A DNA stretch of 64,000 nt. It comes from a virus (lineage: Duplodnaviria; Heunggongvirae; Uroviricota; Caudoviricetes). Where the stretch lies: positions 10,284 to 74,283 of IMG/VR virus record IMGVR_UViG_3300030000_000409. One strand, 5' to 3'. The notes below the pieces were generated by a model, which had not been told where the DNA came from, made no database searches, and saw nothing but the letters and a program-made list of their open reading frames with translations. The position numbers and the translations under genes were made by a program. Of this stretch, positions 1,131 through 61,996 are shown piece by piece. Each line of letters starts with the position of its first letter. Position 1 is the first letter of the stretch.

Positions 1131-1648
1131 ATTTCTAAGGTAACATCGAGGTTTATTTATGTCAACACGGTTTTTAATTGAGATGTCACACCCTAGAATA
1201 GTAAATCATGAAATGTTAGTTGCTACATTTATTCGAGATTGGAATAAGGATCAATGTTTTTATTATCCTGTCTACCAAATAGATAATAAAGCACTGATGA
1301 CTCATGTTTTATTGAAATTTTCTGGTGATGAATCCGTAACAGTTTTTGCACGAGCAAACATAAATTCAGATACTAAAGATTTTGAAAAATTACAATTGAA
1401 AAATTGGGATTTCATTCAAATCTGATAGTTAAAATGTTATAATACGTTATGTCTATTTAATAGGGTAAAAATGCAAACTTCTAAAATGTCGTTGAGTCAA
1501 TTTCTTATCGAGTCGGAAAGACAATGTAAGATTAAACGTGGACAAAATCCAGATATTGGTAGAAAAATTTGTTGGTTACTTCAACCACGAAAAAGCAATA
1601 ACCTGTCAAAAGCTAATAAATAAACAATATTTATTATAGGAGTCAAAG

Positions 1649-2158
1649 ATGAAAGTTCATGAATTATTTGAAGCTGCCCAAGGTTCACCTGGTCAAGATA
1701 AAAAACTTAAGGGTGGTGCATACTACAAACCACAATACAAAAGCGACATTAGTCAGATTCGTGGTTCAGTGCTAGATTGGATGGATGAATTAGGTTTCAC
1801 TCCTGAACATATTGCTGTTGCTGTTAAGGAAATTAAAGCATCAACACTGTTTAAAAAGTTGGAAGATGCTGGTTTGAAATATGATTCTGGAGCAAAACAG
1901 GAAAAATTGGGGACACTATCATTCAATGCTAAACGTGTCTGGGGAGGACGTGGTGGTTACATCGTTTATGCAAATGGTCAGTTACGTTCTAAAACTGGAT
2001 CATCTTGGTCTGATGCGGAAAACACAACACCGTTGAAAACACCAAAACCAAGGGTTCGTGCTGGTGACCCAATCAAATCTCTCAATATGATTTACACTGC
2101 AGCTTTGACAGAAATGCTCAACAAGTGGGAAAAATATAAAAAGGCTAATGCAAAATGA
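1649..2158 (+). CDS. putative capsid-targeted internal protein (CTS-like N-terminus MKVHELFE)
   Basis: The N-terminus MKVHELFEAA resembles the T4 capsid-targeting sequence MKTYQEFIAE, which carries L/I-x-E prohead-protease sites. The same N-terminal motif recurs in six other proteins in this window. Confidence 0.4.
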   Translation: MKVHELFEAAQGSPGQDKKLKGGAYYKPQYKSDISQIRGSVLDWMDELGFTPEHIAVAVKEIKASTLFKKLEDAGLKYDSGAKQEKLGTLSFNAKRVWGGRGGYIVYANGQLRSKTGSSWSDAENTTPLKTPKPRVRAGDPIKSLNMIYTAALTEMLNKWEKYKKANAK

Positions 2159-2326: not shown

Positions 2327-3059
2327 AGTTTAGCTTCTTGTCTACCAACATTGAAGATTGCGGTATAAGATTTAATTTTGGTAATTGTGTTCTTAGTGAA
2401 GAAAATGTGTTATAATAACCTGATAAAGTAGATACTTTCAATCCACTAACATTAGGAATAACAACAGTATAAACTTCTTTTGTTGTAGGTGAAACAATTA
2501 CCTTAAACAATTTGTCAGGAATAAGAGTACCATCAGACATTTTCTTTTCTGGTTGAGATGTAAAAATTGGACCAGTAATTATAAAAGTTGTTTTCTTATT
2601 AAGTGTTAAGATTTGAGTTCTATGTTCTAATGATTTCCAAATTCCTCTATTATTGTTAAGTGGTTGAGGAACAATATTTGTTAAAAAGAAACTTTCATCT
2701 GCAGCAACTATGTCATCCGCAAAATCATCAAATGGTGCAAGATGCCCTTTATCGTAATCAGTTCCAACAAAGGTTGCATTACTTGCTTGGAGTGATGATG
2801 CAACATTTGGATCTGATCTAAAATGATCTCTTCGTTTAACGTTTTGGTTTTTAATATTGTCTTCTGTTAATTTTTCAGATGTCCAAAGAGGAGTTTTTCT
2901 AACTTTTGAATATCCAACAACATAACGTTTATGACAGATAATTGTAACAGGTTCAACAGATACTGGAAAAACTCCATTATAAACCAAATCATTACAAGTC
3001 TGCGCATGAACAGAAATACTTAAGAGTCCAATAAATAATATCAGTATATAATTTTTCAT
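2325..3059 (-). CDS. secreted DNA/RNA non-specific endonuclease (beta-beta-alpha-Me, Serratia NucA/EndA-like)
   Basis: N-terminal signal peptide MKNYILILFIGLLSISVHA|Q. Active-site-like DYDKGHLAP (the DRGH motif family) and downstream NN..RG.W residues. Confidence 0.6.
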   Translation of the reverse strand: MKNYILILFIGLLSISVHAQTCNDLVYNGVFPVSVEPVTIICHKRYVVGYSKVRKTPLWTSEKLTEDNIKNQNVKRRDHFRSDPNVASSLQASNATFVGTDYDKGHLAPFDDFADDIVAADESFFLTNIVPQPLNNNRGIWKSLEHRTQILTLNKKTTFIITGPIFTSQPEKKMSDGTLIPDKLFKVIVSPTTKEVYTVVIPNVSGLKVSTLSGYYNTFSSLRTQLPKLNLIPQSSMLVDKKLN

Positions 3060-7843: not shown

Positions 7844-8413
7844 TTATGAATCACTGGGCAGTGAGAATCCCACTCTAATAGATATAACTGCACCGTCTGA
7901 GTTCCTTCTTATATATAACGTACCTTCAACGTAACCACCCGCATAGTCACCGTATGATGTTCCTACAACATTAAGTGTAGAAGTAATTGGTACATAACCT
8001 GAATCATACCCATTACCAACACCCACATTAAAAACTACCCATCCACCCATACTCACTGTTGTGACAAATCGTGCTGAGTATGCTGATCCGACTCCTGCTA
8101 TTGGTGGTGTTATGTAATTAACTGAGCATGATAGTGTCCCATTAGTATAGATTGAAAGGGAACCGGATGATGTGCCATTTGTACCAGAATTAAAAGTTCC
8201 ACCTGCATCCACATATGAAAGGTTTGGATTAAAGCCGAAGGTTCCACTAGCAGAACTTTTACCCCATCCATCACTCATAGAAATTATTCCACTTGGTTTT
8301 CCGAATAGAGTTCTCACTGCAGTATCATTTAATGATATAGGAGTAGTTGAGCCTGCCCCCAGTTCTGTGTTGACTTGTGATAGTGATATAAGGCCAGAAG
8401 CAGGAAGTGTCAT
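7844..8413 (-). CDS. tail-fibre tip/adhesin paralog 3 (conserved N-terminus MTLPASGLISLSQVN, G/S/T/N/Y-rich variable C-terminus)
   Basis: Shares ~50-aa N-terminus with the two upstream genes and a divergent glycine-rich C-terminus. Lies directly downstream of the tail-fibre gene. Confidence 0.5.
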   Translation of the reverse strand: MTLPASGLISLSQVNTELGAGSTTPISLNDTAVRTLFGKPSGIISMSDGWGKSSASGTFGFNPNLSYVDAGGTFNSGTNGTSSGSLSIYTNGTLSCSVNYITPPIAGVGSAYSARFVTTVSMGGWVVFNVGVGNGYDSGYVPITSTLNVVGTSYGDYAGGYVEGTLYIRRNSDGAVISIRVGFSLPSDS

Positions 8414-8425
8414 AATTTATCTATT

Positions 8426-8956
8426 TTAAGCAATTGATACTTGATATGTACCACCAGCACCAAATCCAAACAATGAGTTGGTCCAAGTCCAAATACTATA
8501 GTTGTAAGCTGGATATGCTTCAAAAGTCGCACTTGATGTAAGTAATGTTTTATTATTAGCAGAAACAGATTTAACAAATGTTGAACTAACAACACCTATA
8601 AGCATTAAGAAACATACATTTGCTGTATAATACGCACCATCAGAAGTTTGATCAGCAAACCACACTATTTCAACTCCATTGAAATAGTGATTAGATAGTG
8701 AACCCATATTACCCCACGCATAAGGACTATATCCAACTCCAAGTCCACTGGACATGTTACCACCAGCAACCATAGTGTACCCGGTTCCAATGGCTGTACT
8801 TTTACCCCATCCATCACTAAGTGATATAATCCCACTAGGTTTACCAAATAATGTTCTTACCGAAGAATCATTTAATGAGCATGGCGAAGTAGCTGAATTA
8901 CCTAATTCAACGTTGACCTGTGAAATGGAAATTGTTCCTGAAGCTGGTAATGTCAT
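8426..8956 (-). CDS. tail-fibre tip/adhesin paralog 2
   Basis: N-terminus MTLPASGTISISQVNVELG..SLNDSSVRTLFGKPSGIISLSDGWGKS is conserved with paralogs 1 and 3; the C-terminus is variable. Confidence 0.5.
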   Translation of the reverse strand: MTLPASGTISISQVNVELGNSATSPCSLNDSSVRTLFGKPSGIISLSDGWGKSTAIGTGYTMVAGGNMSSGLGVGYSPYAWGNMGSLSNHYFNGVEIVWFADQTSDGAYYTANVCFLMLIGVVSSTFVKSVSANNKTLLTSSATFEAYPAYNYSIWTWTNSLFGFGAGGTYQVSIA

Positions 8957-8971
8957 AATTTATCCACTGTT

Positions 8972-9487
8972 TTAAGAAATTGATATTTGATAAGATGAAC
9001 CATTATTAAAAAGTGGTATTTGAGAAGTAGTCCAGCTCCACACGGTTAGTGACTCATATTGATAGTAAGTAGAAGAAGAAGAATATACCGTTGTACCAGC
9101 ATATAAAATTGAAGTAAAAAAATTCTGTGCAACTAAACCCAAAATTGTAAATTCAAGATAGTAGAGATTAGTCCCATTACCCATTGCACTAGTGTATAGG
9201 TCTACAACTGTTAAACCTTTGAATGTATCCGGTGATAAGCTACCTATAAGACCAAATGGTGGGTAAACATAACCTGTTCCATATCCATTAGTGCCTGCTA
9301 CTAAAGTGTGAGTTGACCCAGTTGAATTGCTTTTACCATATAGATTGAATAAACTTATGGCACCACTTTGTATACCTGCTAAATTTCTAACAACTGAATC
9401 ATTCAATGAAATTGTGGTGGTCGCCGCTTTACCAAGCTCAACATTCACTTGAGATAGTGAAATTAATCCAGATGCTGGTAACGTCAT
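8972..9487 (-). CDS. tail-fibre tip/adhesin paralog 1
   Basis: Conserved N-terminus MTLPASGLISLSQVNVELG; starts 2 nt after the tail-fibre stop. Confidence 0.5.
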   Translation of the reverse strand: MTLPASGLISLSQVNVELGKAATTTISLNDSVVRNLAGIQSGAISLFNLYGKSNSTGSTHTLVAGTNGYGTGYVYPPFGLIGSLSPDTFKGLTVVDLYTSAMGNGTNLYYLEFTILGLVAQNFFTSILYAGTTVYSSSSTYYQYESLTVWSWTTSQIPLFNNGSSYQISIS

Positions 9488-9488: not shown

Positions 9489-12400
9489 TTATTTGTTCTT
9501 CAAAAGATCAATTTCAGCTTTGAGCTCTTTGATAGCTTCAATTAACAATGGCACTATCTTACTGTAATCAACAGTTTTAAATTTTTCACCGTCTAACTCA
9601 ATAGACTCAGTAACAATTTCTGGCATAATACTATTTACTTGATCTGCATTAATACCGTAATCATGTTTACCTGCTTTCATTTCAGTATGTTGGAAACCAT
9701 GCTTCCATGTAAATGTACCACCATCCAACTTAGAAATCATTTCAAGAGGATTTTGAATACGTGTGAAGTTTTCTTTTAATCTTGGATCAGAATATGCAGA
9801 TACGTTACCAGCAGCAACCGTATTTCCAGATGGGTCAGTGTACCATGACCAAGCTGCACGAGACCAACCACCAATACCAAAGTATCCATCTGCACGAACA
9901 CCCATCTTGATAGCATATGTATCATTGTAAAATGATAAACCAGCTAAATTAGTATCGCCAGCTCCAGATGCTCTACACACAAAAGAACCTGGTGATGTAT
10001 CATTGACAGCCATTCCAACACCACTTGTTCTACCAGTTATCAAGCTCGTCTGAGCAGTAGCGCTTAAGTATGTAGCAGTACCTGCATTTCCAGAAATGTT
10101 GGTTTGATCACCGGTATTAACACCAGATAGAGTAGTTATACCTAATTTAGTTTTAATCGTGGCGGCAGTTTCATCACCAGTATTGCTACCAGAAACTGCA
10201 TCAAGTTTAATTTTATCAGCAGCTGACATGAAACCGTTAATAGCGGTAGTTACTACAGCATGAGCAGCACCATTGGAACCAACGTGGGCCAATGGTGCAC
10301 TTGCAGCAATTGCGGCAGCTTGTGCACCATTAATGGCTGACGCTTGAGCTGTTGATACTGGCTTATTAACATCTGATATATTATCTACGTTACCTAATCC
10401 AACATCAGCCTTAACCAATGTTACTACACCTGTCTTACCAGCAACAGAATCAACTGCGCCAGAAGTAATGTAAACATAACTACTACCAGACCATCTGTAA
10501 GTCTTGTTGGTATCTAAAGCAACATAAATCTTACCTGATTCACCAGTTGCTGGGAATGCTGCTAAGTTGGCAGCTTCGATAACATCATCAACATAACTTG
10601 GCAACTGAGTTGTTGGAACTTTTCCAGTATTATCAAGTGTTGCAACTCCATTTAATGCGCCCAAAAGAGAACTTGCAACCCTACTAGTAGAATCAATAGC
10701 ATTAATTATTATGTCTGCTGAACCGTTAAAAGAAACCCCGTTGATAGTACGGGCTGTTTGCAACGTTGTTGCTGTTGCAGCGTTACCTGAAATAGTAGTC
10801 TGTATTTGGTGAACGTGATCTGCTCTAGCAGCAGTAGTACTAGTTCCAACAGCAGCAGTTCCATTATTTAATGGGGTTGTTGAAGAAAGACCGGTAATAG
10901 AATTAAATGATGTTCCAGTGATAGCTCCGGTAACTGCGAGTGAGCCAAGAGTTCCAAGAGATGTTATGTTAGGTTGTGCGGCAGTTTGAAGTGTACCAGC
11001 AAATCCAATAGCAGATAATATTCCAGTGCTAGGAATAAAAGAAAGTTTTGAATTTGAAACGTTCAATGTTTGATCGCCTGAAATATCACTCACCCATACT
11101 GGATAAACAGCAGTAGATGGAAGAACATCATTCGTTACATTAGATGCTGCAGATGAAGATGCAGAGACAGTTGATGTTGAGATACCAGTTACCAAACCCT
11201 TAGCATTAACTGTCACAATTGGAATTAATGTAGCAGAACCAAATGTTCCAACATTGGAATTTACTGTAGCCAATGTAGCATTTATTGTAGCATTTGCACT
11301 ACCATTAAATGATGCTGAACCAGATATATCAGCAGCTAATGTGATAGTTCTTGATGTTGCAAGTGCATTTGCAGTAGAAGCATTTCCAATTAAGCTAGCA
11401 GTTATTGTTCCAGCTGAAAAATTACCAGATGTATCTCTTGAAACTATAGTGGATGCAGTATTTACAGATGTTGCATTAGAGTCTATGATTATATTTCCAT
11501 TGACGCCATCAGGATTCGTTATGGATAATCCTACACCAGTAACAGCGACAGAACGAGAAGCACTAGCACCACTAGCTATTTTAACAATTAAACCATTTGA
11601 TGATAATCCAGTGACAGATGTAAGCAATGTGTTTAATGGTTGTGCATCAGTAATTCCATAACCTGTTAATGTGGTTGGAGTATTGACAATCGTTGACCAC
11701 GGTTGAGTTGAAGATGCAGAAATAACTCTACCGTAAATATCAACTGTTACATTTGAATAAAGTCCAGCAGATACACCAGTAGCTGCCAAATCAATAGTGT
11801 CAACATCAACGGTAATTCTTGAAGATGATGCAGTACCGACACTGAATGTATTACCAGATTTTGTTAAACCAGCACCAGCAACTAATTCACCAGGTCTACT
11901 GAACACTGAGAATGCTAATGGTGAAGTACCTAAAACTATGGTGCCATACGTTACTAAGATCCAAGAACTGTTTCCATTTAATGTTCCAGTTTCAACATAT
12001 ACAAGGTCACCAGCAGCAACTTCATTGGTTGGAGATCCATCAAAGTCAGTAGCTCTTGCCCATGCACCAGAAGAAACAACATAAACACCGTTTTCAGCAG
12101 CATTCGTTTGATCTTTTACCAATACACGTGTTCCAGAACCAGCAATAACACCATCTAAAGTTTGGATACCAGATAATGCAATATTTGCAGTTGTTGAAGT
12201 TAACACTGCTAAATGTGGTGACACACCAGCAGCAATATTATCAACGTAATCTTTTGTTGTTAAATGAGAACCAGATACTGGTGAAGCTCCAGTTACAGGA
12301 GAAGAGAATGTCCAGGAACCGGTAACTGTTTCATTTCCAGCAACTCTCGTAAGAACATTTGCATCTGCGATCTGTGATTCATTTATTGAAAGAGCTGCTT

Positions 12401-13064
12401 GGTGTTGTGTTACATTGTTAGAAGAGATTCTAGAATTATTAAATGTACCAGAAACTATAGCAGATGTATCAATGCTCGGTGAATTATTTGATGCTGAAGA
12501 AATTCTACCCTTTGAATCAACAGTGAATGATGGAATAGAAGAATTGGATCCATAAGTCCCTGCACTTACTCCACTAGCTGATAATGTGAGTGTTATAGAT
12601 GTTGAACCTGATCCAACACCATCACCTGAAATACTAATATTCTGGTTAGCTGAAAGATATGAATTTGTGTCTAGAGTCCAAGTATTGACTGCAATTTTCT
12701 TTAATGTACCAAAACTTCCAGAGAGTGCAGCAATGGAAGTAAGATCACCATCAAGTGATTGTGCATCTGTTATTCCATAACCAGCTAACGTTGTTGGTTT
12801 AGAACCACCTACAACTAGTCCCTTACTATTTACATTTACCAATGAATATGTACCAGCAGAAATCACGGCGGGCAACAACAATGTTAAATCAGAAGAAGCA
12901 CTCAATTGAGGAACCCATGATGCACCATTGTTAACAAAAAGTTGATCCAAATCTGACTTATAAAAAAGTTCTCCTATTTGTCCAATAGGTAAAACCGTAC
13001 CAGAAGAAACTGCTAAATTTGAAACCTCTGATCCATCTACCATTTTGATACTGTCGAATAACAT
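9489..13064 (-). CDS. tail fibre protein (1191 aa) with C-terminal intramolecular chaperone / peptidase S74 autoproteolytic domain
   Basis: Repeated fibre motifs (TLAGYGITDAQ twice) in a Gly/Ser/Thr-rich beta-rich sequence. The C-terminal ~100 aa, YSDPRLKENF...GGTFTWKHG...VDYSKIVPLLIEAIKELKAEIDLL, matches the S74 intramolecular chaperone consensus (SD.RLK.NI...F.WK...LL.EAIKEL). The cleavage Ser codon is near 9789-9791. Confidence 0.75.
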   Translation of the reverse strand: MLFDSIKMVDGSEVSNLAVSSGTVLPIGQIGELFYKSDLDQLFVNNGASWVPQLSASSDLTLLLPAVISAGTYSLVNVNSKGLVVGGSKPTTLAGYGITDAQSLDGDLTSIAALSGSFGTLKKIAVNTWTLDTNSYLSANQNISISGDGVGSGSTSITLTLSASGVSAGTYGSNSSIPSFTVDSKGRISSASNNSPSIDTSAIVSGTFNNSRISSNNVTQHQAALSINESQIADANVLTRVAGNETVTGSWTFSSPVTGASPVSGSHLTTKDYVDNIAAGVSPHLAVLTSTTANIALSGIQTLDGVIAGSGTRVLVKDQTNAAENGVYVVSSGAWARATDFDGSPTNEVAAGDLVYVETGTLNGNSSWILVTYGTIVLGTSPLAFSVFSRPGELVAGAGLTKSGNTFSVGTASSSRITVDVDTIDLAATGVSAGLYSNVTVDIYGRVISASSTQPWSTIVNTPTTLTGYGITDAQPLNTLLTSVTGLSSNGLIVKIASGASASRSVAVTGVGLSITNPDGVNGNIIIDSNATSVNTASTIVSRDTSGNFSAGTITASLIGNASTANALATSRTITLAADISGSASFNGSANATINATLATVNSNVGTFGSATLIPIVTVNAKGLVTGISTSTVSASSSAASNVTNDVLPSTAVYPVWVSDISGDQTLNVSNSKLSFIPSTGILSAIGFAGTLQTAAQPNITSLGTLGSLAVTGAITGTSFNSITGLSSTTPLNNGTAAVGTSTTAARADHVHQIQTTISGNAATATTLQTARTINGVSFNGSADIIINAIDSTSRVASSLLGALNGVATLDNTGKVPTTQLPSYVDDVIEAANLAAFPATGESGKIYVALDTNKTYRWSGSSYVYITSGAVDSVAGKTGVVTLVKADVGLGNVDNISDVNKPVSTAQASAINGAQAAAIAASAPLAHVGSNGAAHAVVTTAINGFMSAADKIKLDAVSGSNTGDETAATIKTKLGITTLSGVNTGDQTNISGNAGTATYLSATAQTSLITGRTSGVGMAVNDTSPGSFVCRASGAGDTNLAGLSFYNDTYAIKMGVRADGYFGIGGWSRAAWSWYTDPSGNTVAAGNVSAYSDPRLKENFTRIQNPLEMISKLDGGTFTWKHGFQHTEMKAGKHDYGINADQVNSIMPEIVTESIELDGEKFKTVDYSKIVPLLIEAIKELKAEIDLLKNK

Positions 13065-13118
13065 GCAAGACTCCTAGTTATATTAATTACTTGTATTTAT
13101 TGAATGATGCTAATTCTG

Positions 13119-13126
13119 TATAAATA
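13119..13126 (+). promoter_or_regulatory. T4-type late promoter TATAAATA
   Basis: Exact TATAAATA ~30 nt upstream of the 13153/13156 start. It heads the cluster of CTS-bearing genes. Confidence 0.45.
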
Positions 13127-13155
13127 CTACGTTATTACTATTCGGAAATCATGTG

Positions 13156-14037
13156 ATGCTTTCATTTAAATCTTTTCTTTTTGAGGGTGGGAATGCTGTT
13201 CAAAAATACAACGTATCAAGAGCAAATCCTGCTGATGTGAAGGCCTGTTTAGAATTTGTATCCAAGCATTTGGGTATACCATATGATGAAATTAAAAATG
13301 ACTTATTAGGTTCAACAGAACTAACATTTCTTGGTAAGAAAAAAGATAGCGGTGATGTTGATATTGCCTTTTCATTAGAACATGTTGATGTGAATGATGT
13401 TAACAAAAAGATGTTAGCTGCTGTAAATGGAGAAGGTACCTATAATGCAGGTACAAAAGTTGGATCTTATGCTGTCCCAGTAAATGGGAAGAAGATTCAG
13501 GTCGATTTAATGTTTGTGTCAAATAAAATTTGGGCTAAATGGATGTACCATTCTTCACAAGGTAATGGATCTGCTTATCCTGGTGTAGTTAGAAACATTT
13601 TACTTTTTACAACACTAGCACATACACAGACCCCTGGTAAAGATTTCGTGTTAAGAGACACTGAAGGTAAACCCGTCATACGTGCATCAAAGTCAATTAA
13701 TATGGATGCTGGTATGAAGAGACTTTTTAAGATGTCAAAAGTAAATTCAAAAACCGGTAAATACAATAAGTCAATTGACACAGTCGAACCATCTGAGATT
13801 GAATCACATTTGAAATCTATAGGAAAAAATATCCCATTTTCAAAGGATAGAGATTTCACTGACAAACCTGATGATGTTGCTAAATTTATTTTTGGAGATT
13901 CTGTTAAAGGAACAGATTTAATGACGGCAGAAAATGTCATTTCTCAGATTAAGAAACTGAAAAATGCAACTGAAATAATAAATGCATCAAAGAAAGAACT
14001 AACACGTCTCAATTTACCAATACCTAAAGAACTATGA
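13156..14037 (+). CDS. Pol-beta-superfamily nucleotidyltransferase-fold protein with CTS-like N-terminus (candidate packaged/injected enzyme)
   Basis: LGSTELTFLGKKKDSGDVDIAFS is the minimal NTase signature hG[GS]x9-13Dh[DE]h. N-terminus MLSFKSFLFE|GG has an L-x-E site. A GTG at 13153 is the alternative start. Confidence 0.45.
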   Translation: MLSFKSFLFEGGNAVQKYNVSRANPADVKACLEFVSKHLGIPYDEIKNDLLGSTELTFLGKKKDSGDVDIAFSLEHVDVNDVNKKMLAAVNGEGTYNAGTKVGSYAVPVNGKKIQVDLMFVSNKIWAKWMYHSSQGNGSAYPGVVRNILLFTTLAHTQTPGKDFVLRDTEGKPVIRASKSINMDAGMKRLFKMSKVNSKTGKYNKSIDTVEPSEIESHLKSIGKNIPFSKDRDFTDKPDDVAKFIFGDSVKGTDLMTAENVISQIKKLKNATEIINASKKELTRLNLPIPKEL

Positions 14038-14951
14038 AACTACATGAACTATTTGAAGGCATCAAAAAAGATGACCAATTCAAAAAAGATTTAGCACTAT
14101 TCATTAACAATTTGAACGCAATGATAAAAGCTAAGAAGCTACTTTTCAGGGGTTTAGATAACATGGGCATCAATATGAAATCCACATCTGTGGAAAATGG
14201 GGATGATTTAATTTGGAAAATTATAAAAGGTCGAGTAGATTCTATTAAGTCAGGAAATCGTGGTCCTAGAGAATCACTAACAGGAATAAATTTAATTTTG
14301 AATGTGACTACAAATTTCCCTTCATGGAGTAAAATACCTAAAAGAAAGTTTAGTACTAGTTGCACCAGTTCTGGATATGATGCTAGTTTTTTCGGTGATG
14401 TATTTGTTATTGTTCCCGCTGACAATGTTAAAAAATTCGCAATGTCAACAGGAGACTTTAATGAGTTGAGGATTAATAGTTCACCAATAATATCTTTAAC
14501 ACCAGCACTAAGTAATATTACTAAAACTTATATCGAAATAAATAATTTAAATATAAAGGAATTAGTTTCCTATGATCAATTTAAGGCTTTTTACAAGTGG
14601 GCTGATGCTAATTTATTAACACCTCCAACAAAACCATCTATTGGAAAAATAAATAAGTCGCATTATTCACTTACTACTGGTGCAGATGCAATATCATTTT
14701 TGAAAAACATGAAATGTTCTTCATTTGAAGAATTCTTTGAAGATAGGTTGTCACCATCAAAATTGGGAATATTAGAGTTTGATTCAATTGATGAACTTTT
14801 AAATAATCCAAAATCATCTAAGTCAAATGAGGTTTGGTTTGAGGGTGATTATTTACTCATCACTTCTGATTTCTTTGATAATTATTCTGGCATGAATCAA
14901 TCTGGTTTAACCACACAATTTTCAAAAATGATAAAACGGGTAATAGGGTAA
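14034..14951 (+). CDS. MKLHELFE-family paralog A (CTS-like N-terminus; possible Alt/Mod-like ADP-ribosyltransferase)
   Basis: N-terminus MKLHELFE, then LLFRGL (aromatic-Arg), PRESLTGINL and FSTSCTSSG (STS-like). Paralogous to the genes at 14955 and 15868. Confidence 0.4.
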   Translation: MKLHELFEGIKKDDQFKKDLALFINNLNAMIKAKKLLFRGLDNMGINMKSTSVENGDDLIWKIIKGRVDSIKSGNRGPRESLTGINLILNVTTNFPSWSKIPKRKFSTSCTSSGYDASFFGDVFVIVPADNVKKFAMSTGDFNELRINSSPIISLTPALSNITKTYIEINNLNIKELVSYDQFKAFYKWADANLLTPPTKPSIGKINKSHYSLTTGADAISFLKNMKCSSFEEFFEDRLSPSKLGILEFDSIDELLNNPKSSKSNEVWFEGDYLLITSDFFDNYSGMNQSGLTTQFSKMIKRVIG

Positions 14952-14954
14952 AAA

Positions 14955-15866
14955 ATGAAACTACATGAATTGTTTGAAGATCAGAATGGTGATCAAGATT
15001 TAATCGACATCTTAAGAAAGCACTGTCCCAATAACTTAAAAGCTATGGCTTCAGGAAGGGCCCCAATGTTGTGGAGGGGTATGAATTGGGATGCTAGTAT
15101 TGAAACTCCTAAATACAAGTGTGACACGGTTAGTACACAGAAAACAAAACGCGAATCGAAAACTGGATCAAATCTGATAATGAGTTTCTTTTCAACAAAC
15201 AAAGACTGGGTTGAATCAACTGTTAATAGATCACTTTCTACTTCCACTTCCTGTTCGTACGATTACGCTTCACAGTTTTCTGGTCCAACATGGTTGGTTA
15301 TTCCATTTGATAATGTCAAACGTTTCAGTTATACATATACGGATTTAAATTTAGTTGATGTAAATGATACCTCGCTTATTGATTTGAATCACCAAATGAA
15401 GGATATTTCTAATGCAATAGAAGGTTTTCGTCATTGGAATTATGATAAGCTAGATAAAGATATTGCTAGAATAGCGCATGCTGATATTTTTGATTATGAT
15501 ATTGGGTCTCACCATTATTCAACTGAAGAAATAAAAGAATTTTCAAATCAGCTTGAAAAAATATTTGTATTGTTAAAGAATACAAAGAAAAGAAAAACAC
15601 TAGCAGTAACAGATGCAGCAACTTTCAAAGATATGGAAGAAGAAATGAATGACTCCTCCATGTATCGTTGGATGTTAAATGAACTCTCTCCATCTGCATT
15701 AGGTATAAAGACATTTAATTCTATAACTCAAATTCCTAATCATGTTAAAAAAGCTGAAGTATGGTTTGATGGGGATTATTTTATTTTTAGCCCAGTAGCA
15801 TCTCAGTTAACAGCATCACAACCTTTTAATATAGAATGGTTCAAAGAAATAATTGCAAAGGTATAA
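14955..15866 (+). CDS. MKLHELFE-family paralog B
   Basis: MKLHELFE...MLWRGM...KRESKTGSNL...LSTSTSCSY, the same motif order as paralog A. Confidence 0.4.
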   Translation: MKLHELFEDQNGDQDLIDILRKHCPNNLKAMASGRAPMLWRGMNWDASIETPKYKCDTVSTQKTKRESKTGSNLIMSFFSTNKDWVESTVNRSLSTSTSCSYDYASQFSGPTWLVIPFDNVKRFSYTYTDLNLVDVNDTSLIDLNHQMKDISNAIEGFRHWNYDKLDKDIARIAHADIFDYDIGSHHYSTEEIKEFSNQLEKIFVLLKNTKKRKTLAVTDAATFKDMEEEMNDSSMYRWMLNELSPSALGIKTFNSITQIPNHVKKAEVWFDGDYFIFSPVASQLTASQPFNIEWFKEIIAKV

Positions 15867-15867
15867 T

Positions 15868-16800
15868 ATGAAGTTGTTTGAACTATTTGAACAGAAGAAT
15901 GATTTAGCATCAGCAATAAAACAACACAGTCCCGATAATTTTAGAGCATTGATATCAGGCAGTGCACCAGCATTATATCGCGGAGTACATAGTAGAGTAT
16001 TAGAAGAAGGAAATTTCAACTACGATATAGTTAAAGAAAGAACTCAACCCAGAGAATCAATGACAAGATCAAATTTATTTTTAGATTTTACATCTGAAAG
16101 TAAAAGTTGGAAATCATTGGGGGTTGACAGAGCATTTTCTACATTCGTTACGGTGAATGTAGAAAATGCTGAAATATTTGGTGATCCATTTTTAATCATT
16201 CCATTTGACAATGTTTCAACTTTTGCATCAACACGTGCAGATTTCAATTTAGTAACATTTGGTAAAAATAAAAATTCTATATCACAGATTTCTAGAACAA
16301 TAGGATTTGTTTGTACTACGGTTATTCAGTTTGGGCAAAAATCAGGTTTCTTCAATAAGGTTTTACCAAAGGATTTTATCAACGTTATTAAAAATGGATT
16401 TATAACAAAATTTAGGAACATTAAACATTTTACACAGGATGACATTAAAAAATTATCTGATTCACTTGGTGCACTTAAATCACTGCCATTTGATTTAGAG
16501 ATTGAAAAGTTAAAATCTAGTGGATCACAAGAGTTAGCCATTATTCATTTAGAAGATCTTCAGAGCCAATTATTTACTTTAGATAAGATGCTATCAGGTA
16601 AATCGTTAAATGATTGGTTACAATTTAACATGTCACCTAAAGCTGTAGGCGTAAAAGTTTTTGAACATTATCAGGATATTATCGTTTCAAAAAATGCTGA
16701 ACTTTGGTTTAGAGGACAGTATATAATGATAAATCATGAATCAATTAAAATTGAAAAGTTATATTCTTCTAAAGAATTTGAAAATCTGATGCAAGTTTAA
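15868..16800 (+). CDS. MKLHELFE-family paralog C
   Basis: MKLFELFE...ALYRGV...PRESMTRSNL...FSTFVTV. ATG at 15868 is preceded by AAGG. Confidence 0.4.
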   Translation: MKLFELFEQKNDLASAIKQHSPDNFRALISGSAPALYRGVHSRVLEEGNFNYDIVKERTQPRESMTRSNLFLDFTSESKSWKSLGVDRAFSTFVTVNVENAEIFGDPFLIIPFDNVSTFASTRADFNLVTFGKNKNSISQISRTIGFVCTTVIQFGQKSGFFNKVLPKDFINVIKNGFITKFRNIKHFTQDDIKKLSDSLGALKSLPFDLEIEKLKSSGSQELAIIHLEDLQSQLFTLDKMLSGKSLNDWLQFNMSPKAVGVKVFEHYQDIIVSKNAELWFRGQYIMINHESIKIEKLYSSKEFENLMQV

Positions 16801-16851
16801 CAGATATCAACTTCATAGTATAATGATCCAATAATAATTATTGGAGCGTCT

Positions 16852-17595
16852 ATGCTTGGTTTATCTCTAAGAACACACAATGTTCGAAATCTCTTTATTT
16901 CCATCCTTGAACAAAAACTCTTTACTTCTGTAAATCGAGAAGGGTCAATGACTGACCTGGTTGGTAATACAACAATCGAAATTGTTAATGCATCGTTCAT
17001 TGCAGATGAACCTTCAATCTTCGGTGAAGTCAATTTAGATTATGTCAGACGTGAAGAAGAATGGTATAATTCAATGTCACTTAACGTGAATGATATTCCA
17101 GGTGGAGCTCCAGCAGTCTGGAAAGCAGTGGCTGATGAAAATGGTTTTATCAATTCCAATTACGGTTGGGCTATCTATTCTCCAGATAATGGTTTTGATG
17201 AACTACCTCTCAACGAGAATAATGAATTAAACTCTCAGTACGGTTCCGTAGTAAAAGAACTCCGTAAAAATCCTGAATCACGTCGAGCAATGATGATCTA
17301 CACTCGACCTTCAATGTGGTTAGATTACAACAAGAATGGTCGTTCTGACTTCATGTGTACGAATGCAGTCCAATATCTGATACGTGGTGGCAAAATCCAT
17401 TCAATAGTTCAGATGCGCAGCAATGATGCAGTGTTCGGTTACAAAAATGATTGGGCATGGCAAAAACACGTACTTGACAAATTAGCAAATGATTTAAGTA
17501 TTCCATCTGGGAATATTTTCTGGAATGTTGGAAGTCTTCATGTATATTCAAGACATTACCACCTTGTTGATCCAATTAACTACAGTAGGAAATAA
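16852..17595 (+). CDS. 42: deoxycytidylate (pyrimidine dNMP) hydroxymethylase, T4 gp42-like
   Basis: Near-collinear similarity to T4 gp42 as recalled: TIEIVNASFIADEPSIFG, INSNYGWAIYS, RRAMMIYTRPSM, DFMCTNAVQYLIR, MRSNDAVFGYKNDWAWQKHVLDKL, IFWNVGSLHVYSRHY. Confidence 0.75.
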   Translation: MLGLSLRTHNVRNLFISILEQKLFTSVNREGSMTDLVGNTTIEIVNASFIADEPSIFGEVNLDYVRREEEWYNSMSLNVNDIPGGAPAVWKAVADENGFINSNYGWAIYSPDNGFDELPLNENNELNSQYGSVVKELRKNPESRRAMMIYTRPSMWLDYNKNGRSDFMCTNAVQYLIRGGKIHSIVQMRSNDAVFGYKNDWAWQKHVLDKLANDLSIPSGNIFWNVGSLHVYSRHYHLVDPINYSRK

Positions 17596-43429: not shown

Positions 43430-43996
43430 ATGTCAGTATTTTTTACATCCGATTTGCATCTGTACCATAAGAACGTAATTACGTTCTGTAATAGACCATG
43501 GAAAAATGAAGTGGATATGAATCAAGGTCTATTACAGAACTGGAACTCAAAGGTTGGGCAAGATGACACTATCTATATTTTGGGGGATGTGTTCTTTTGT
43601 GGGATGACTGAAGCCATCAATTTCATCCAGCGACTAAATGGACAAAAATTACTGGTATATGGAAATCATGATAAGGTAATTCGTAATAATGTTCGTCTTC
43701 AACAAGAGTTTGAAATTCTCCCTGAGCTTCATCAAACTTATATAGAAGGTGTGCATGTGAGTATGAGTCATTATCCTCTTCTGTCTTGGAATAAAGCGCA
43801 TCACGGTGCTTTCATGTTGCATGGACATGTTCATAGCTCAAAAACTACTGATGGTCGTGTTCGTAGATATGACGTTGGTGTAGATGCAAATAACTATGCA
43901 CCTGTTGCATGGGAAGAAATTAAGAGGGTCCTTGAAAAGATTGAACCCAGAGATGGTGATCCTACTCGTTCAGCACGAGGTGCTAAAGCAGATTAA
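43430..43996 (+). CDS. calcineurin-like metallophosphoesterase
   Basis: FTSDLHLYH ... YILGDVFF ... VYGNHD ... GHVH: metallophosphoesterase motifs I-IV. Confidence 0.65.
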   Translation: MSVFFTSDLHLYHKNVITFCNRPWKNEVDMNQGLLQNWNSKVGQDDTIYILGDVFFCGMTEAINFIQRLNGQKLLVYGNHDKVIRNNVRLQQEFEILPELHQTYIEGVHVSMSHYPLLSWNKAHHGAFMLHGHVHSSKTTDGRVRRYDVGVDANNYAPVAWEEIKRVLEKIEPRDGDPTRSARGAKAD

Positions 43997-44417
43997 TAAA
44001 CTGCTTAATTCCTGGGTGTAATGGTTTTGGCCATTCACCCTTTTTTATCCACCGGAAATCGACATTCTCCCAATTCAATTCTGGCTCAAATTCTTCTGGA
44101 ACAGTTCCTACGAAATTGTGATAAATGAAATCTATTTTACTGTCATCGAAAGTAAATATTGGTTTCAGGTTTATCTGACCATCATACCCGGCTTCCTCGA
44201 ATAGTTCTCTTTTAGCTGCTTGTTCGGGAGTCTCTCTTTCATCTATTTCACCTCCAAATCCTGCCCAGGTCAATGGAGAAGAAACATGTCTACAACGTAG
44301 GGTGAATAGATATCGTTCTGTCTTTTCACAATATGGTATAACACCAGCTCCTCTAAACTGTATGACTATCTCCGATAGTTCTTCTATTTCTCTTATTAAG
44401 AAGTCTTTAAAATTCAT
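43983..44417 (-). CDS. NUDIX hydrolase
   Basis: Nudix box GGEIDERETPEQAAKRELFEEAG. Confidence 0.7.
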   Translation of the reverse strand: MNFKDFLIREIEELSEIVIQFRGAGVIPYCEKTERYLFTLRCRHVSSPLTWAGFGGEIDERETPEQAAKRELFEEAGYDGQINLKPIFTFDDSKIDFIYHNFVGTVPEEFEPELNWENVDFRWIKKGEWPKPLHPGIKQFINLL

Positions 44418-45099
44418 GATTTATTTCTAATAGTTTAAAAAGATCGTTTACGAAAGTAGTGCCATTATCAATTCTGACCCCAATATAACTATCACCTGTC
44501 AACAGAATATCTTCGTATCCAATTTTAAGGACATGAGTTAACCCCTTAGCATCATCAATATTTTGTGGGTTTAAACCACCAATCTCTTTAGCAAGAAAAT
44601 CAATCTTTTCTTCATGAGTGGTAGATTCATCACGAATTATTCTGTATCCACTTAATGCGCTAATTTCATGGAAAGAATAACCTGTTGTAACTCTAGTAAA
44701 TACTGTTACATCCCATCCATCTTTTGGGAATATCACATATACATTACCCCAATCATCAGCCAAATCTATATTCGTAGTACAGAAAATAGCATTCTTTCTA
44801 GTAGCTCTCAATCCTAGTTTTAAAAAAGCATCATGAAGAATCTCATGAAATTCAGGTTTCATTTCAACTGGGCGTCTATCAGGTCTTATTCCTGTGATGA
44901 TAACCTTTTTGCTTTCTCCTCTAAGACCACGATACAAAAAATCTCTAGCCTGTTTATAAGCTTCCACCGCGTCTTTACAGTTATGCTTAATTGTTTCAGC
45001 TAATTTTTCAATATCATTTATCTTTGTGATACCTGAATCTTCATCAGGGTTAGCAAGATCATGAACTTTATATCTATCTAAAATTTCGTATACTTTCAT
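44407..45099 (-). CDS. MKVYEILD-family paralog (member of the MK[LV][HY]E[LI][FL][ED] family)
   Basis: MKVYEILDRY...FLYRGL...IRPDRRPVEM...NAIFCTTN. Paralogous to the adjacent upstream gene and, more distantly, to the 14034/14955/15868 genes. Confidence 0.4.
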   Translation of the reverse strand: MKVYEILDRYKVHDLANPDEDSGITKINDIEKLAETIKHNCKDAVEAYKQARDFLYRGLRGESKKVIITGIRPDRRPVEMKPEFHEILHDAFLKLGLRATRKNAIFCTTNIDLADDWGNVYVIFPKDGWDVTVFTRVTTGYSFHEISALSGYRIIRDESTTHEEKIDFLAKEIGGLNPQNIDDAKGLTHVLKIGYEDILLTGDSYIGVRIDNGTTFVNDLFKLLEINHEF

Positions 45100-45770
45100 T
45101 TTATTCCTAATATTTTTAACGTTTCACGTGAGAAAGGAGATGAATATCTTAAACCTAAATATTTTGAACCTGTTATTAAAATGTCAACATAATTCGAATT
45201 GATAATATTTGATAAATGACTTGAAGATGAAAATTGTAATGGTGTCTTTTTGAGTAATTGTTCTTTGATGTATTCTACTTGTTTAGTTTCATCTTCTTCA
45301 AATTCCATTATTGCATCATCAACGACCCTCATAGCATAATTGAAAACATAATCAGTTCTAATGTCTTTAAAAATTGTTCCAGACCAACCATCCTTAACAA
45401 AGATTATATATGGCTCACCCCAACTATTAGCAACATATTTATCACTAGAGCAAAAGATAGAATTGGTTCTATTTGCTTTTAAGCCTATCAAATCAAAAGC
45501 TTTTGTTAATAATTTTTGATTGTTCGGCCCCATGTAAAGTGGTTTTCTATCCGGTCTTATGTGGGCACCTATAATATCAGCATCTTTTTCCTCTTTGATA
45601 CCTCTAAATAATCTTCCGTGACTATTGCTGTATGCATCAACAAATGTTTTATATTCTCTTTTTAAGAGCTCAGCTGCCTGTTCAGGACTATGAATTGCCA
45701 TAATTGAAGAGTCAGTTGGGTTCTTAAGATTGTGTGCAAGATATGGATCTAAAATTTCGTATACTTTCAT
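45096..45770 (-). CDS. MKVYEILD-family paralog
   Basis: MKVYEILDPY...RLFRGI...IRPDRKPLYM...NSIFCSSD. Confidence 0.4.
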   Translation of the reverse strand: MKVYEILDPYLAHNLKNPTDSSIMAIHSPEQAAELLKREYKTFVDAYSNSHGRLFRGIKEEKDADIIGAHIRPDRKPLYMGPNNQKLLTKAFDLIGLKANRTNSIFCSSDKYVANSWGEPYIIFVKDGWSGTIFKDIRTDYVFNYAMRVVDDAIMEFEEDETKQVEYIKEQLLKKTPLQFSSSSHLSNIINSNYVDILITGSKYLGLRYSSPFSRETLKILGIK

Positions 45771-45867
45771 GTGCTCTCCATTTGATAGATTATTTATTCA
45801 AAATAGTTATTTTTCAAACTGATTCGTGTTAAAAGAAAATAAATTGTACATTTAACTTGAATCAGTG

Positions 45868-60298: not shown

Positions 60299-61996
60299 AT
60301 GAAATTCTTACAAATTCTGAATGAAGCAAGTACACTTCAAGTAAGCGATCTAAAAAAGGTTATCACAAAAGACAAAAAAGTGTCTATGATTCTGTCAAAG
60401 GATGTTAAGCTAGAAGACATCACCGATAAAGAAGGGTTTCTTTCTACCTTAAAGTTCTACATATTCAATAATGAAAATGTAAGAATGTTTGTTAAGTCTC
60501 GTCATGATATTAAAGACGTCAATAAATTTGAATTTGATGATTTAAAAAAGAAACGAGCTTCAGATCTCACTCAGAGTGATTTAGATATTATAGGAGACTT
60601 CCTTAGAGTTTTATTTAAGGAACACACATCTGTATCTAAAAATACTTTATCTCCTGACGCTAAGAGAGAACTTAGGGATTGGGTCAATGGCGATAATCGT
60701 TATCATGCTTTATCTGGATGGGCAATAAAAGAATTGCAATCTGTTCCAGGGTTAAAACCTTCTAAGAGAATTTTGGTTTATAGAGGGTTGTTGTTTTCTG
60801 AATCAAGTCTAAAAATATCAAAATCTTATGATGGTACTTTGGAAGTTGGTCAAGGTCAGAAGTTCCTAAAATCAATCAAAGATGGTAGTCGTGAAGTAGA
60901 TTTGTCTTGGGAAAGACCATCAAGTTGGACAACAAGTAAAGAAATTGCTGAACGGTTTGCACAATACGGACCAGCATCATCTCAAAACGGTGCAATGATG
61001 CAATGGCTTGGAAGAATGTCTAGTAAGAAAGCTATTGATGGTGCTTTGGGATATGTCATATCTACATTTGTTAATCCAGAAGATGTGATAATCGATTTTT
61101 CTAAAATTGCATTATCAGGTGCTAAGCATGGAGATGAAGGTGAAGTGATTATAAAAGCTGGCACTATTAAGGCACGAATTGTTAAAAAATACACAGTTGA
61201 AGGTGAAGTTGATCCAGACGAAAAGGCAGCTGACACATCAAAAGTTACAGAGACATTTGATGCTCTAACAAAATTTGTATCTGAGAATGGTTTACCGTCT
61301 GACTTGGCAGCTATTAAATCTACTATGTCAAAGACTAGAGATATTTATGGATCAAATGCTAGTGCACTTTGTTCTTATCCGGATTTGATTGTTCCGTTGA
61401 TGAAAAATTCTACTACAACAACTGTGATTCATTTGATGGATAAGTATATCGATTTCTTCAATAGTACTTTTAAAAATGTCACCAAAGACGATTTAAAAAT
61501 TGATAAATATATGAGTACTGATGAAGAGTTTGTAAAGAAACTTCAAGCTTTATCAACAGTTTATTCTACCTTTACTGGTACTGTCACTCATTCAAAATTT
61601 GTCGGTGCTGACAATCAAAAGGGTAAAGGACAAATAAACAAATTATCTGCTGAAGAATTTAGAGCAACAATTTCCTCATCCGATCTTGCTGGCATGCAGA
61701 ATGAATATTTGAAATTAGGATACTTTAAAGATGAAAGTAGAGAATTTATAAGTCTGGGTAACAGTCTAAAAATAGAAATACCATCATCATTTAAAGTGAT
61801 GGGAGCAGCAAAACAAAAACCTTACATTGATGAAGTCATCAATGCATTTTTTGAAAAATATTCTATTGAGTCACCTGGTGATTCATTAGAAAAATTTAAA
61901 TCATTAATCAACTTACTAAGAAAAGCATATAGAAATTATTCGATGATAGACACTTTAAGTGACACTATTGGAGAATTAATGCAATTTCAAATTTAA
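60299..61996 (+). CDS. large MKFLQILNE-family protein; possible Alt-like ADP-ribosyltransferase (R / S-T-S / E-x-E candidates)
   Basis: N-terminus MKFLQILNE belongs to the same family as MKLHELFE. Has ILVYRG (aromatic-Arg), SWTTS, and GDEGEVIIK resembling an E-x-E-[VI]-[IL] ARTT motif. Confidence 0.3.
   Translation: MKFLQILNEASTLQVSDLKKVITKDKKVSMILSKDVKLEDITDKEGFLSTLKFYIFNNENVRMFVKSRHDIKDVNKFEFDDLKKKRASDLTQSDLDIIGDFLRVLFKEHTSVSKNTLSPDAKRELRDWVNGDNRYHALSGWAIKELQSVPGLKPSKRILVYRGLLFSESSLKISKSYDGTLEVGQGQKFLKSIKDGSREVDLSWERPSSWTTSKEIAERFAQYGPASSQNGAMMQWLGRMSSKKAIDGALGYVISTFVNPEDVIIDFSKIALSGAKHGDEGEVIIKAGTIKARIVKKYTVEGEVDPDEKAADTSKVTETFDALTKFVSENGLPSDLAAIKSTMSKTRDIYGSNASALCSYPDLIVPLMKNSTTTTVIHLMDKYIDFFNSTFKNVTKDDLKIDKYMSTDEEFVKKLQALSTVYSTFTGTVTHSKFVGADNQKGKGQINKLSAEEFRATISSSDLAGMQNEYLKLGYFKDESREFISLGNSLKIEIPSSFKVMGAAKQKPYIDEVINAFFEKYSIESPGDSLEKFKSLINLLRKAYRNYSMIDTLSDTIGELMQFQI

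Follow-up and report, generated by a model that had tools for sequence, protein, structure and literature searches.

The DNA considered here, a stretch of 64,000 nucleotides from a virus of the Caudoviricetes (the window), carries four plus-strand genes between positions 13119 and 16800. The run opens with a T4-type late-promoter-like box, TATAAATA (13119..13126, plus strand), which lies where the first-pass annotation had reported a late promoter, 29 nt before the ATG of a gene (13156..14037) encoding a 293-aa nucleotidyltransferase of the Pol-beta superfamily. Three tandem genes follow, for proteins of 305 aa (14034..14951, matching PHROG 12810 with E = 1.5e-15), 303 aa (14955..15866) and 310 aa (15868..16800), the first two beginning with MKLHELFE and the third with MKLFELFE. 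In relatives, AATAAATA or CATAAATA occupies the position equivalent to the 13119-13126 box. Divergently, on the minus strand, AATAAATA (13094..13101) stands 29 nt upstream of a 1191-aa tail-fibre gene (9489-13064), and the tail-fibre genes of the relatives L005 and L006 are preceded by equivalent boxes. At the other end, a sigma-70-like promoter (TTAACA-16-TATAAT, 11/12 matches; 16797..16824, plus strand) precedes a thymidylate-synthase-like gene and appears from its sequence to mark the 3′ boundary of the late unit.

What these genes share with others in the window is their first few codons. When every ATG-, GTG- or TTG-initiated ORF of at least 40 aa was scanned in all six frames, the motif MK[LVIM][HYFW]E[LIVF][FLIM][EDQ] was found at exactly six places, all of them real gene starts: 1649, 14034, 14955 and 15868 on the plus strand, 45770 and 45099 on the minus strand. 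The chance expectation for this strict motif, estimated from residue frequencies, is about 2e-4 over some 115 gene starts. Seven proteins had been proposed to begin MK(L/V)(H/Y/F)E(L/I)(F/L)(E/D). Six fit, including the two given as 44407(-) and 45096(-), which are the low-coordinate ends of the minus-strand genes starting at 45099 and 45770; the seventh, at 60299, begins MKFLQILNE, with Gln at position 5 and Glu at position 9, and is thus related to the pattern yet different from it. Nor do the seven form a single family, as had been suggested: the 169-aa protein encoded at 1649 shares only residues 1-13 with the paralogs, and neither the 565-aa protein at 60299 nor the nucleotidyltransferase is homologous to them. 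Since one family accounts for five of the six exact matches, the independent evidence lies in the leader's reappearance on proteins outside that family, and this 8-10-residue element is common to at least five protein families that have no homology to one another. The exact motif is carried by the paralog family and by the unrelated 169-aa protein, while a variant, FKxFLxE, is carried by the nucleotidyltransferase, whose N-terminus MLSFKSFLFEGG reads MLSFKSFLFE and then GG, just as first described, and by a NUDIX hydrolase. Elsewhere, outside the window, both variants are found inside the paralog family.

The other tagged genes lie at three places. The 169-aa protein (1649..2158, plus strand; leader MKVHELFE), unrelated to the paralogs past residue 13, has AATAAATA at 1615-1622, 26 nt upstream. 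Two short-form paralogs, of 224 aa (45096..45770) and 230 aa (44407..45099), are encoded on the minus strand with the leader MKVYEILD, the first preceded by AATAAATA at 45791-45798, 20 nt upstream. Their operon (45770-43983) ends with a gene overlooked in the first-pass annotation, that of the 144-aa NUDIX hydrolase (43983..44417, minus strand; Pfam NUDIX 5e-15), whose nucleotidyltransferase-type leader, MNFKDFLIRE, falls outside the domain, the Pfam match covering residues 22-142. Finally, the 565-aa protein (60299..61996, plus strand; MKFLQILNE followed by AS) has TATAAATA at 60265-60272, 26 nt upstream. [TA]ATAAATA stands 20-29 nt ahead of each of the four tagged units and of the divergent tail-fibre gene, as a consensus match only; across the window TATAAATA is not significantly enriched (9 found, 4.9 expected).

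The leader is conserved far better than the bodies of the proteins that bear it. In 141 representatives of the paralog family shorter than 400 aa, drawn from a 50%-identity representative library, it has M at position 1 (98%), K/R at 2 (84%), V/L/I at 3 (86%), E/D/Q at 5 (90%), L/I at 6 (84%) and E/D at 8 (64%), and it is kept in thousands of homologs although their bodies are only about 25% identical to the window paralog. For nucleotidyltransferase homologs, 115 of 117 leaders consist of F[KR]x[FY], two to four residues and E, usually with GG next, and the N-terminus of the 60299 family is conserved as M-x-L-[LI]-x-L-L-Q-E-[AS]-S with E9 invariant. Leader codons differ synonymously from copy to copy, which indicates selection on the peptide. 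In AlphaFold2 models, pLDDT over the first 10 residues is 41 for the nucleotidyltransferase and 52 for the second paralog, the rest of both models being above 90, so that the leader, as modelled, does not seem to be part of the protein fold.

The three tandem genes are true paralogs, as first proposed (25-30% identity; BLASTP E = 7e-21, 7e-16 and 2e-32). The two short forms are clearly paralogous to each other (E = 1e-46) and are tied to the long forms by profiles only (PHROG 12810 and 11975, and a profile search), the 230-aa protein matching PHROG 11975 at 2.9e-23 and PHROG 12810 at 4.3e-9. By profile search, the family comprises at least 3,623 clusters at 50% identity, mostly from uncultured jumbo phages. 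It had been likened to the R-S-E mono-ADP-ribosyltransferases (ARTs) because of its [LF][YFW]RG, R-x-S and S-T-S motifs. The motifs themselves are real: in a 53-sequence alignment the corresponding positions of the long forms (R41, R66, S68, S95) are invariant, as are E268, W270 and F271, and R41, S95 and E268 lie in or beside predicted strands of the second paralog (AlphaFold2 pLDDT 91.4). The short forms, however, have Asp in place of the “catalytic” Glu and their Ser is not invariant, and the paralogs have no Q/E-x-E. No sequence or profile homology to any ART family was detected: Pfam scans of 119 family members gave no match, hmmsearch of the family against the PDB was negative, and hhalign against ModA, ModB and Alt returned probabilities of at most 3%. 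The tandem paralogs bear only a weak fold resemblance to ARTs, and they belong to a fast-evolving, copy-number-variable and uncharacterised family with enzyme-like conservation.

The 565-aa protein appears to be the better ART candidate, at the motif level only. Its E-x-E-V-I element, judged plausible from the start, contains E280-x-E282, which is invariant in 35 homologs (32-51% identity) together with Y161-R162-G163 and S208-S209-W210. This R, S-x-S and E-x-E triad is that of R-S-E mono-ADP-ribosyltransferases and makes the protein a candidate Alt-like ART; by hhalign the motifs line up with those of T4 Alt, ModA and ModB, but the match is not significant.

The identification of the 13156 protein as a nucleotidyltransferase was correct. 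The GS...DVD signature lies in G52-S53-x13-D67-V-D69, and with D117, the third carboxylate, it is invariant in 35 homologs, in agreement with the hG[GS]-x9-13-Dh[DE]h motif of the Pol-beta superfamily; the model (pLDDT 91.4; residues 1-11 below 50) has the nucleotidyltransferase alpha-beta fold. The C-terminus, LP[IV]PxEL, is conserved as well, and the matches listed include at least 164 homologs at 45-72% identity. By model, the protein seems closest to the palm and thumb of family X polymerases, a resemblance that is structural only. Like the minimal Pol X of African swine fever virus (ASFV) and its family, it has GS-x13-D-V-D, with “SGD[IV]D” as in pol beta, and a third Asp on the adjacent strand; however, it is only 10-15% identical to them and differs in having an additional beta subdomain at residues 164-209 as well as a helical domain at its C-terminus. 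Pfam DNA_pol_B_palm recurs as a weak match in 6 of 35 homologs (best E 0.018, below threshold), the 13156 protein itself has no DNA_pol_B_palm or thumb match above threshold, a PDB profile search was negative, and neither an 8-kDa lyase nor a helix-hairpin-helix fingers domain was identified.

Relatives show how the locus varies. Between the nucleotidyltransferase and the thymidylate-synthase-like gene there are 0, 1, 2 and 3 paralogs in L002, L005, L006 and the window, respectively. In phage RsoM2USA the leader is borne by ORFs 254-256 and 258, a P-loop kinase among them, next to what we take, from their N-terminal sequences, to be head-completion and terminase genes. In the Agrobacterium phage Atu_ph07 the genes stand in the same order as in the window, with the nucleotidyltransferase gp65 followed by a tandem array, gp62-gp53, and its virion proteome (ESI-MS/MS, protein-level listing in Table S5) includes gp43, gp53-63 and gp65 (PMC6102473). 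All 12 leader-bearing ORFs in the first 100 kb of this genome (gp43, gp53-63) are thus in the virion list, against a background of 46 of 133 CDS. Since gp65 has no clear leader and is present all the same, either the tag is not strictly required or the start of gp65 is mis-annotated. Atu_ph07 also encodes a homolog of the T4 prohead protease gp21 (gp204), and RecA-like, SSB and ribonucleotide reductase proteins are on its virion list too (PMC6102473). The virions were purified with PEG, and such preparations can carry contaminants.

The closest known parallel is the capsid-targeting sequence of T4. There, gp21 cleaves after L/I-x-E, 10 residues of IPIII are enough to have a protein packaged (PMC9026906; PMC3012670), and Asp at the final Glu position allows targeting but blocks processing (PMC9026906). 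IPII and IPIII begin MKTYQEFIAE, followed by A, and Alt begins MELITELFDE, whose ELF[DE] core recurs in MKLHELFE. The resemblance first noted is borne out by the portability of the leader, its L/I/F-x-E end, its low model confidence and its conservation far beyond the protein bodies. As in the roughly 10-residue propeptides of IPI, IPII and IPIII, L/I-x-E is followed by a small residue (MKLHELFE by G, MKFLQILNE by A, FKSFLFE by G), and MNFKDFLIRE has the same kind of end, while the short paralogs (MKVYEILD) end in I-L-D. As with the internal proteins (IPs), too, one tag sits on otherwise unrelated and rapidly diversifying proteins, in a hypervariable locus with late-type promoters. The IPs, however, are small basic inhibitor proteins, whereas the cargo here is of 170-565 aa with enzyme-like folds or conservation, the leader comes in two interchangeable variants, and packaging and cleavage are predicted from sequence. 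With T4 Alt, the 60299 protein shares a large size, a late-type promoter and similar motifs (YRG, SSW(T/S)TS and ExE-V-I-L in its family; LYRS, VSTS and EMEVIL in Alt), but its ART-like domain lies in the middle of the protein and not at the C-terminus; the tandem paralogs are a distinct family, and neither they nor the 60299 protein resemble Alt, ModA or ModB significantly in sequence or profile comparisons. In the portion of Iyer et al. (2022; PMC9503650) drawn on here, ARTs and Nudix proteins of myoviruses are inferred often to be packaged and injected, on the basis of MuF/portal-domain fusions and gene neighbourhood and not of a short N-terminal leader. The tag is likewise found here on a NUDIX hydrolase and an ART-like protein; the paralog family and the nucleotidyltransferase match no Pfam family.

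By analogy with T4, the 13119-16800 region is thus probably a late unit of a T4-related jumbo phage for cargo packaged in the head, namely a nucleotidyltransferase and three paralogs with a capsid-targeting-like leader. The leader (MK-h-x-E-L-F-E or M-x-x-F-K-x-F-L-x-E, 8-10 residues) would act as a T4-type targeting sequence and let its protein dock on the scaffolding core while the prohead assembles, after which a gp21-type prohead protease would cut behind the Glu of L/I/F-x-E and remove it; the mature enzyme would be retained in the head and enter the host with the DNA. The presence of one tag on several unrelated enzymes makes injection their likely fate, and at least three more loci would supply such cargo: 1649, the 45770-43983 operon with its NUDIX hydrolase, and the ART-like protein at 60299. 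For the window's phage we infer targeting, cleavage, injection and all the enzymatic activities; neither a prohead protease nor a head gene was found in the window or within 10 kb past either end, so the gp21-type protease is expected here from relatedness only.

Could the paralogs be tagged and virion-associated without being enzymes? They would then be internal head, scaffold-core or DNA-associated structural proteins, comparable to the T4 IPs or the inner-body proteins of phiKZ, with their R/S/E-like residues serving folding or DNA/core binding. We consider this unlikely, though it has points in its favour: among the 119 family members nothing points to an enzyme family in Pfam, PDB sequences or BFVD, the short forms carry the Asp and variable Ser described above, many Atu_ph07 paralogs are co-detected in virions with moderate coverage, and fusion to effector-like modules, such as the zeta-toxin domain joined to the paralog domain in Atu_ph07 gp53, is what a carrier or packaging module would be expected to show. 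Against it stand about 12 polar or aromatic residues that are invariant across sequences some 25% identical (R41, R66, S68, W85, R92, D119, D130, N132, E268 and W270 among them), a pattern typical of an active or ligand-binding site. Far less probable still is that the leader has no part in packaging and that the proteins work within the host cell at a late stage of infection. It could then be an amphipathic helix through which they oligomerise or bind partners, a tag recognised by the phage-encoded Clp-type protease or chaperone, or a translation-initiation optimum. In the models residues 4-13 or 4-23 are indeed helical, ClpX and a Clp-protease-like protein are encoded by Atu_ph07, and in relatives the nucleotidyltransferase heads a conserved block of nucleotide-metabolism and replication genes, a setting that is also compatible with work inside the cell, but the virion detection of every leader-bearing protein in 100 kb of Atu_ph07, the gp21 cleavage consensus that ends the motif, its likeness to the Alt and IPIII propeptides, the synonymous codon variation (which makes an mRNA-level cause unlikely) and the low model confidence of a leader found on unrelated folds all speak for head-packaged cargo.

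Proteins that a phage injects along with its DNA are at work ahead of all phage gene expression, which makes them prime counter-defence weapons. To our knowledge, proteomics and fusions to head domains have usually been the only means of recognising them outside T4. It is possible, if on balance doubtful, that a very large clade of T4-related jumbo phages uses the leader throughout as a portable capsid-targeting tag, so that N-termini reveal the full injected-effector set of each phage, including the first virion-delivered family-X-like polymerase or nucleotidyltransferase and a new, hyper-diversifying family of enzymes locked in an arms race with the host's defences. If the tag holds good for thousands of uncultured jumbo phages, it would allow the effectors that are injected to be predicted straight from metagenomic sequence, and it could be used as it stands to load foreign proteins into large capsids. 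The unexplored cargo includes a conserved, possibly virion-borne Pol-X-like nucleotidyltransferase, which if so delivered would act on incoming genome ends, host nucleic acids or nucleotide immune signals, and a very large family of uncharacterised proteins whose conservation is enzyme-like. A small tentative ORF (1486..1623, plus strand) would also begin with a nucleotidyltransferase-type leader, MSLSQFLIES, if translated from an internal ATG.

The N-terminal leader in this phage is a short element shared by proteins that otherwise have little in common. When every start-codon-initiated ORF of the window was scanned exhaustively against MK[LVIM][HYFW]E[LIVF][FLIM][EDQ], the motif appeared at exactly six sites and nowhere else, each of them a gene start (1649, 14034, 14955, 15868, 45770(-) and 45099(-)). 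The first-pass annotation had listed seven proteins with an MK[LV][HY]E[LI][FL][ED]-type start; six fit this description, but the 565-aa protein at 60299(+), which begins MKFLQILNE, does not. The related start that it proposed for the 293-aa nucleotidyltransferase at 13156 was confirmed as MLSFKSFLFEGG. What had been described as a seven-member family is instead a common leader carried by unrelated proteins: the likeness of the 169-aa protein (1649(+)) to the paralogs is limited to the first 13 residues, the 565-aa and 13156 proteins have nothing in common with them, and hhalign of the 565-aa family with the paralog families detected no homology. The FKxFLxE variant has an extra carrier in the NUDIX hydrolase at 43983-44417(-), which starts MNFKDFLIRE and whose Pfam domain begins at residue 22, and tentatively, judging by its first residues, the small ORF at 1486 (MSLSQFLIES) may be a further one.

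This leader is preserved well beyond the window. With the five window paralogs as query, an HMM search run exhaustively on a library clustered at 50% identity (E <= 1e-3) matched at least 3,623 cluster representatives. In 141 of the best hits, all shorter than 400 aa, the N-terminus follows the consensus M(98%)-K/R(84%)-V/L/I(86%)-x-E/D/Q(90%)-L/I(84%)-F/L/I(74%)-E/D(64%), and the bodies of the homologs share about 25% identity with that of the window paralog. Some members of the family carry an FKQFLxE variant in place of the main leader. The 13156 family has F[KR]x[FY], then two to four residues and a Glu, in 115 of 117 homologs, usually with GG next, and in the 565-aa family the conserved start is M-x-L-[LI]-x-L-L-Q-E-[AS]-S, E9 being invariant. 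Over residues 1-10 the two AlphaFold models have a pLDDT of 41 and 52, vs more than 90 elsewhere. The leader is thus a conserved, separable element, and the observation is real and biologically meaningful. Conservation at the mRNA level was rejected as its basis, since synonymous codons vary among the leader copies. A signal peptide was rejected by inspection, the leader being acidic and amphipathic and without hydrophobic character.

The closest precedent is T4, in which IPII and IPIII start MKTYQEFIAE|A and Alt starts MELITELFDE. The protease gp21 cuts after L/I-x-E, IPIII needs no more than its first 10 residues for head targeting, an Asp at the cleavage position blocks processing while targeting is kept, and Alt is processed at both ends (PMC9026906). 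The T4 and window leaders are of equal length and both finish with a hydrophobic-x-E followed by G, A or S; the ELF[DE] core of Alt is also found in the window leaders. T-even internal proteins are diverse defence proteins whose only common part is the capsid-targeting sequence (PMC3012670), and Iyer et al. (2022, PMC9503650) make an independent case that head packaging of ARTs and Nudix proteins is common among myoviruses. A closer literal match to the IPII/IPIII sequence than the main leader is offered by an 87-aa ORF at 46966-47229(+), which starts MMKTYDEII and has no terminal Glu at position 10.

Relatives provide evidence from the virion itself. By tblastn, both families match Agrobacterium phage Atu_ph07, a 490 kb phage with 16 T4 core genes, including the gp21 homolog gp204 (PMC6102473). 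Its gene order is that of the window: the nucleotidyltransferase homolog gp65 is followed by tandem gp62-gp55 and the longer gp54 and gp53, and the array members all start M[KR]W[EHDQN][QD]L[TNI]E. Scanning the first 100 kb of Atu_ph07 for the motif gave 12 leader-bearing ORFs (gp43 and gp53-63), and CDS numbers were paired by position and molecular weight with Table S5 of Attai et al. 2018 (PMC6102473). In this region, the ESI-MS/MS virion proteome includes all 12 leader-bearing ORFs vs 46 of 133 CDS overall (PMC6102473). It also contains gp65, which is without a clear leader. The same list holds two NUDIX hydrolases, gp238 and gp303, as weak evidence of one peptide each, in parallel to the leader-tagged NUDIX of the window. 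UniProt/BFVD lists the 778-aa family member gp53 (39484-41820) as "Zeta toxin domain-containing protein", so that fusions of the paralog-family domain with another effector-like module are possible; five copies of the domain are found in P0132, a relative of 2,645 aa.

In Ralstonia phage RsoM2USA, four leader-bearing genes lie within ORFs 254-258 (MRLKQFLME, MKFSDYILES, MNQTFKQFLTE and MTTFKEYLLEG), including one family member and one P-loop kinase, the carrier of the last leader. The cluster adjoins what we take, from N-terminal sequences only, to be head-completion and terminase genes. The neighbouring ORF257, seen as an abundant band in virions, has a reported mass of 17.57 kDa vs 19.65 kDa predicted, a discrepancy that could be explained by cleavage behind the L-S-E at residue 21. 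For the phage studied here, reading the leader as a probable capsid-targeting sequence is well supported by comparative evidence and by published proteomic evidence from relatives. T4 already provides the principle of internal proteins tagged in this way; what is new is its extension to a very large clade of jumbo phages and to novel enzyme cargo.

Expression signals resemble those of the late type. The putative late promoter proposed ahead of 13156 was located as TATAAATA at 13119-13126, and [TA]ATAAATA lies 20-29 nt 5' of the first ATG in all four tagged units (1649, 13156, 45770 and 60299). The divergent tail-fibre gene has such a box at the same range of distances, and equivalent boxes are kept in relatives. 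The genes of 13156-16800 abut or overlap, no plus-strand terminator was found between them, and the next unit starts at 16797 with a strong sigma-70-like promoter (11/12). Relatives keep the order tail fibre(-), nucleotidyltransferase(+), thymidylate-synthase-like, helicase and glucosyltransferase; the slot behind the nucleotidyltransferase contains no paralog in the relative L002, one in L005, two in L006 and three in the window, a variable count resembling the plasticity of T4 internal-protein loci. The exact TATAAATA also stands 20-28 nt 5' of each of two (+) ORFs, at 29425-30279 and 58703-59500, which from their N-termini are presumably GIY-YIG-like. It is likewise found 23 nt 5' of an Endonuclease_NS-family nuclease at 2325-3059(-) with a signal-peptide-like N-terminus, MKNYILILFIGLLSISVHA.

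The best characterized cargo is the nucleotidyltransferase, whose suspected minimal signature (GS...DVD) was borne out by the invariant residues G52-S53-x13-D67-V-D69 and D117 and by the predicted fold (pLDDT 91.4, pTM 0.84). With invariant carboxylates and a confident model, both the nucleotidyltransferase fold and the catalytic geometry are therefore present. CdnE (8.9) and terminal uridylyltransferases (~8) are the next-ranked likenesses of the model; the sole recurrent Pfam match, DNA_pol_B_palm, is sub-threshold and confined to 6 of 35 members, and membership of the family X polymerases was not borne out. The extreme C-terminus, LP[IV]PxEL, is strongly conserved and fits L/I-x-E inexactly; by analogy with T4 Alt, whose two ends are both processed, it may serve as another motif for processing or interaction.

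The other cargo is harder to name. Searches of Pfam, NCBIfam and PHROGs left the nucleotidyltransferase, the paralogs and the 169-aa and 565-aa proteins without an assigned function, and profile searches of PDB sequences with the nucleotidyltransferase, paralog and 565-aa families gave only spurious coiled-coil/helical matches. As had been noted, the three tandem genes are indeed paralogs, 25-30% identical (BLASTP E = 7e-21 to 2e-32). The minus-strand pair are likewise paralogous to each other (E = 1e-46), and PHROG 12810/11975 and a joint profile tie the long forms to the short ones. An R-S-E ART had been proposed for them. R41, S95 and E268 are invariant in the long paralog, stand in ART order and lie in or beside predicted strands (model pLDDT 91.4), but the short forms have Asp in place of Glu, and no signal linking the family to ARTs came from Pfam, PDB or hhalign, including non-significant comparisons of the paralog families with T4 ModA, ModB and Alt, single or aligned. 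One-by-one Pfam scanning of 119 members found no recurrent family, the multidomain relatives (<=2,645 aa) contain no informative Pfam domains, and Foldseek against viral models returned uncharacterised homologs only. An ART-like activity is thus conceivable for the paralogs, if rather doubtful. The 565-aa family, judged on its motifs, may well be the better Alt analogue: YRG, SSW(T/S)TS and E-x-E-V-I-L are invariant, upholding the E-x-E-V-I element seen earlier, and hhalign places these motifs in register with ModB (R, STT), ModA (STS, ExE) and Alt (ExE), at non-significant scores. A Pfam scan of 35 members revealed no recurrent family.

The window (G+C ~36%, low) encodes T4-type topoisomerase II large and medium subunits (52492 and 54703) and a helicase of T4-type function (18624). 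INPHARED holds no near-identical phage DNA, and the 565-aa protein had zero tblastn matches in phage DNA. Xanthomonas phages BUDD and X1 (55%), XacN1, Xoo-sp13 and RsoM2USA are the cultured phages closest by topoisomerase similarity, and homologs of the flagged genes occur on contigs from metagenomes, the longest of 368 kb. T4-type functions, topoisomerase relatives and homologs on big contigs therefore identify a T4-related jumbo phage of an uncultured lineage. Neither head nor protease genes were found within 10 kb past either window end. Two thymidylate-synthase homologs, of T4-type function, are present: a canonical ThyA at 57734-58654 and a divergent one at 16852-17595 (Pfam 51.9 bits, far under the NCBIfam thymidylate-synthase cut-offs), which adjoins a T4-type beta-glucosyltransferase (21871-22992). 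This gene content suggests a hydroxymethyl- or hydroxy-pyrimidine that would subsequently be glycosylated; D169N is the signature of 5-hydroxy-dCMP synthases (PMC13326640). The gene at 4202-5812(+) encodes a Ro60-like RNA-binding protein of 536 aa, in which both a TROVE and a vWA_Ro60 domain are present. Directly 3' of the large tail-fibre gene (1191 aa, 9489-13064, minus strand), three tandem paralogs of 171-189 aa at 7844-9487(-), each starting MTLPASG[LT]ISLSQVN[VT]ELG, may represent variants of a fibre tip, an adhesin or a chaperone.
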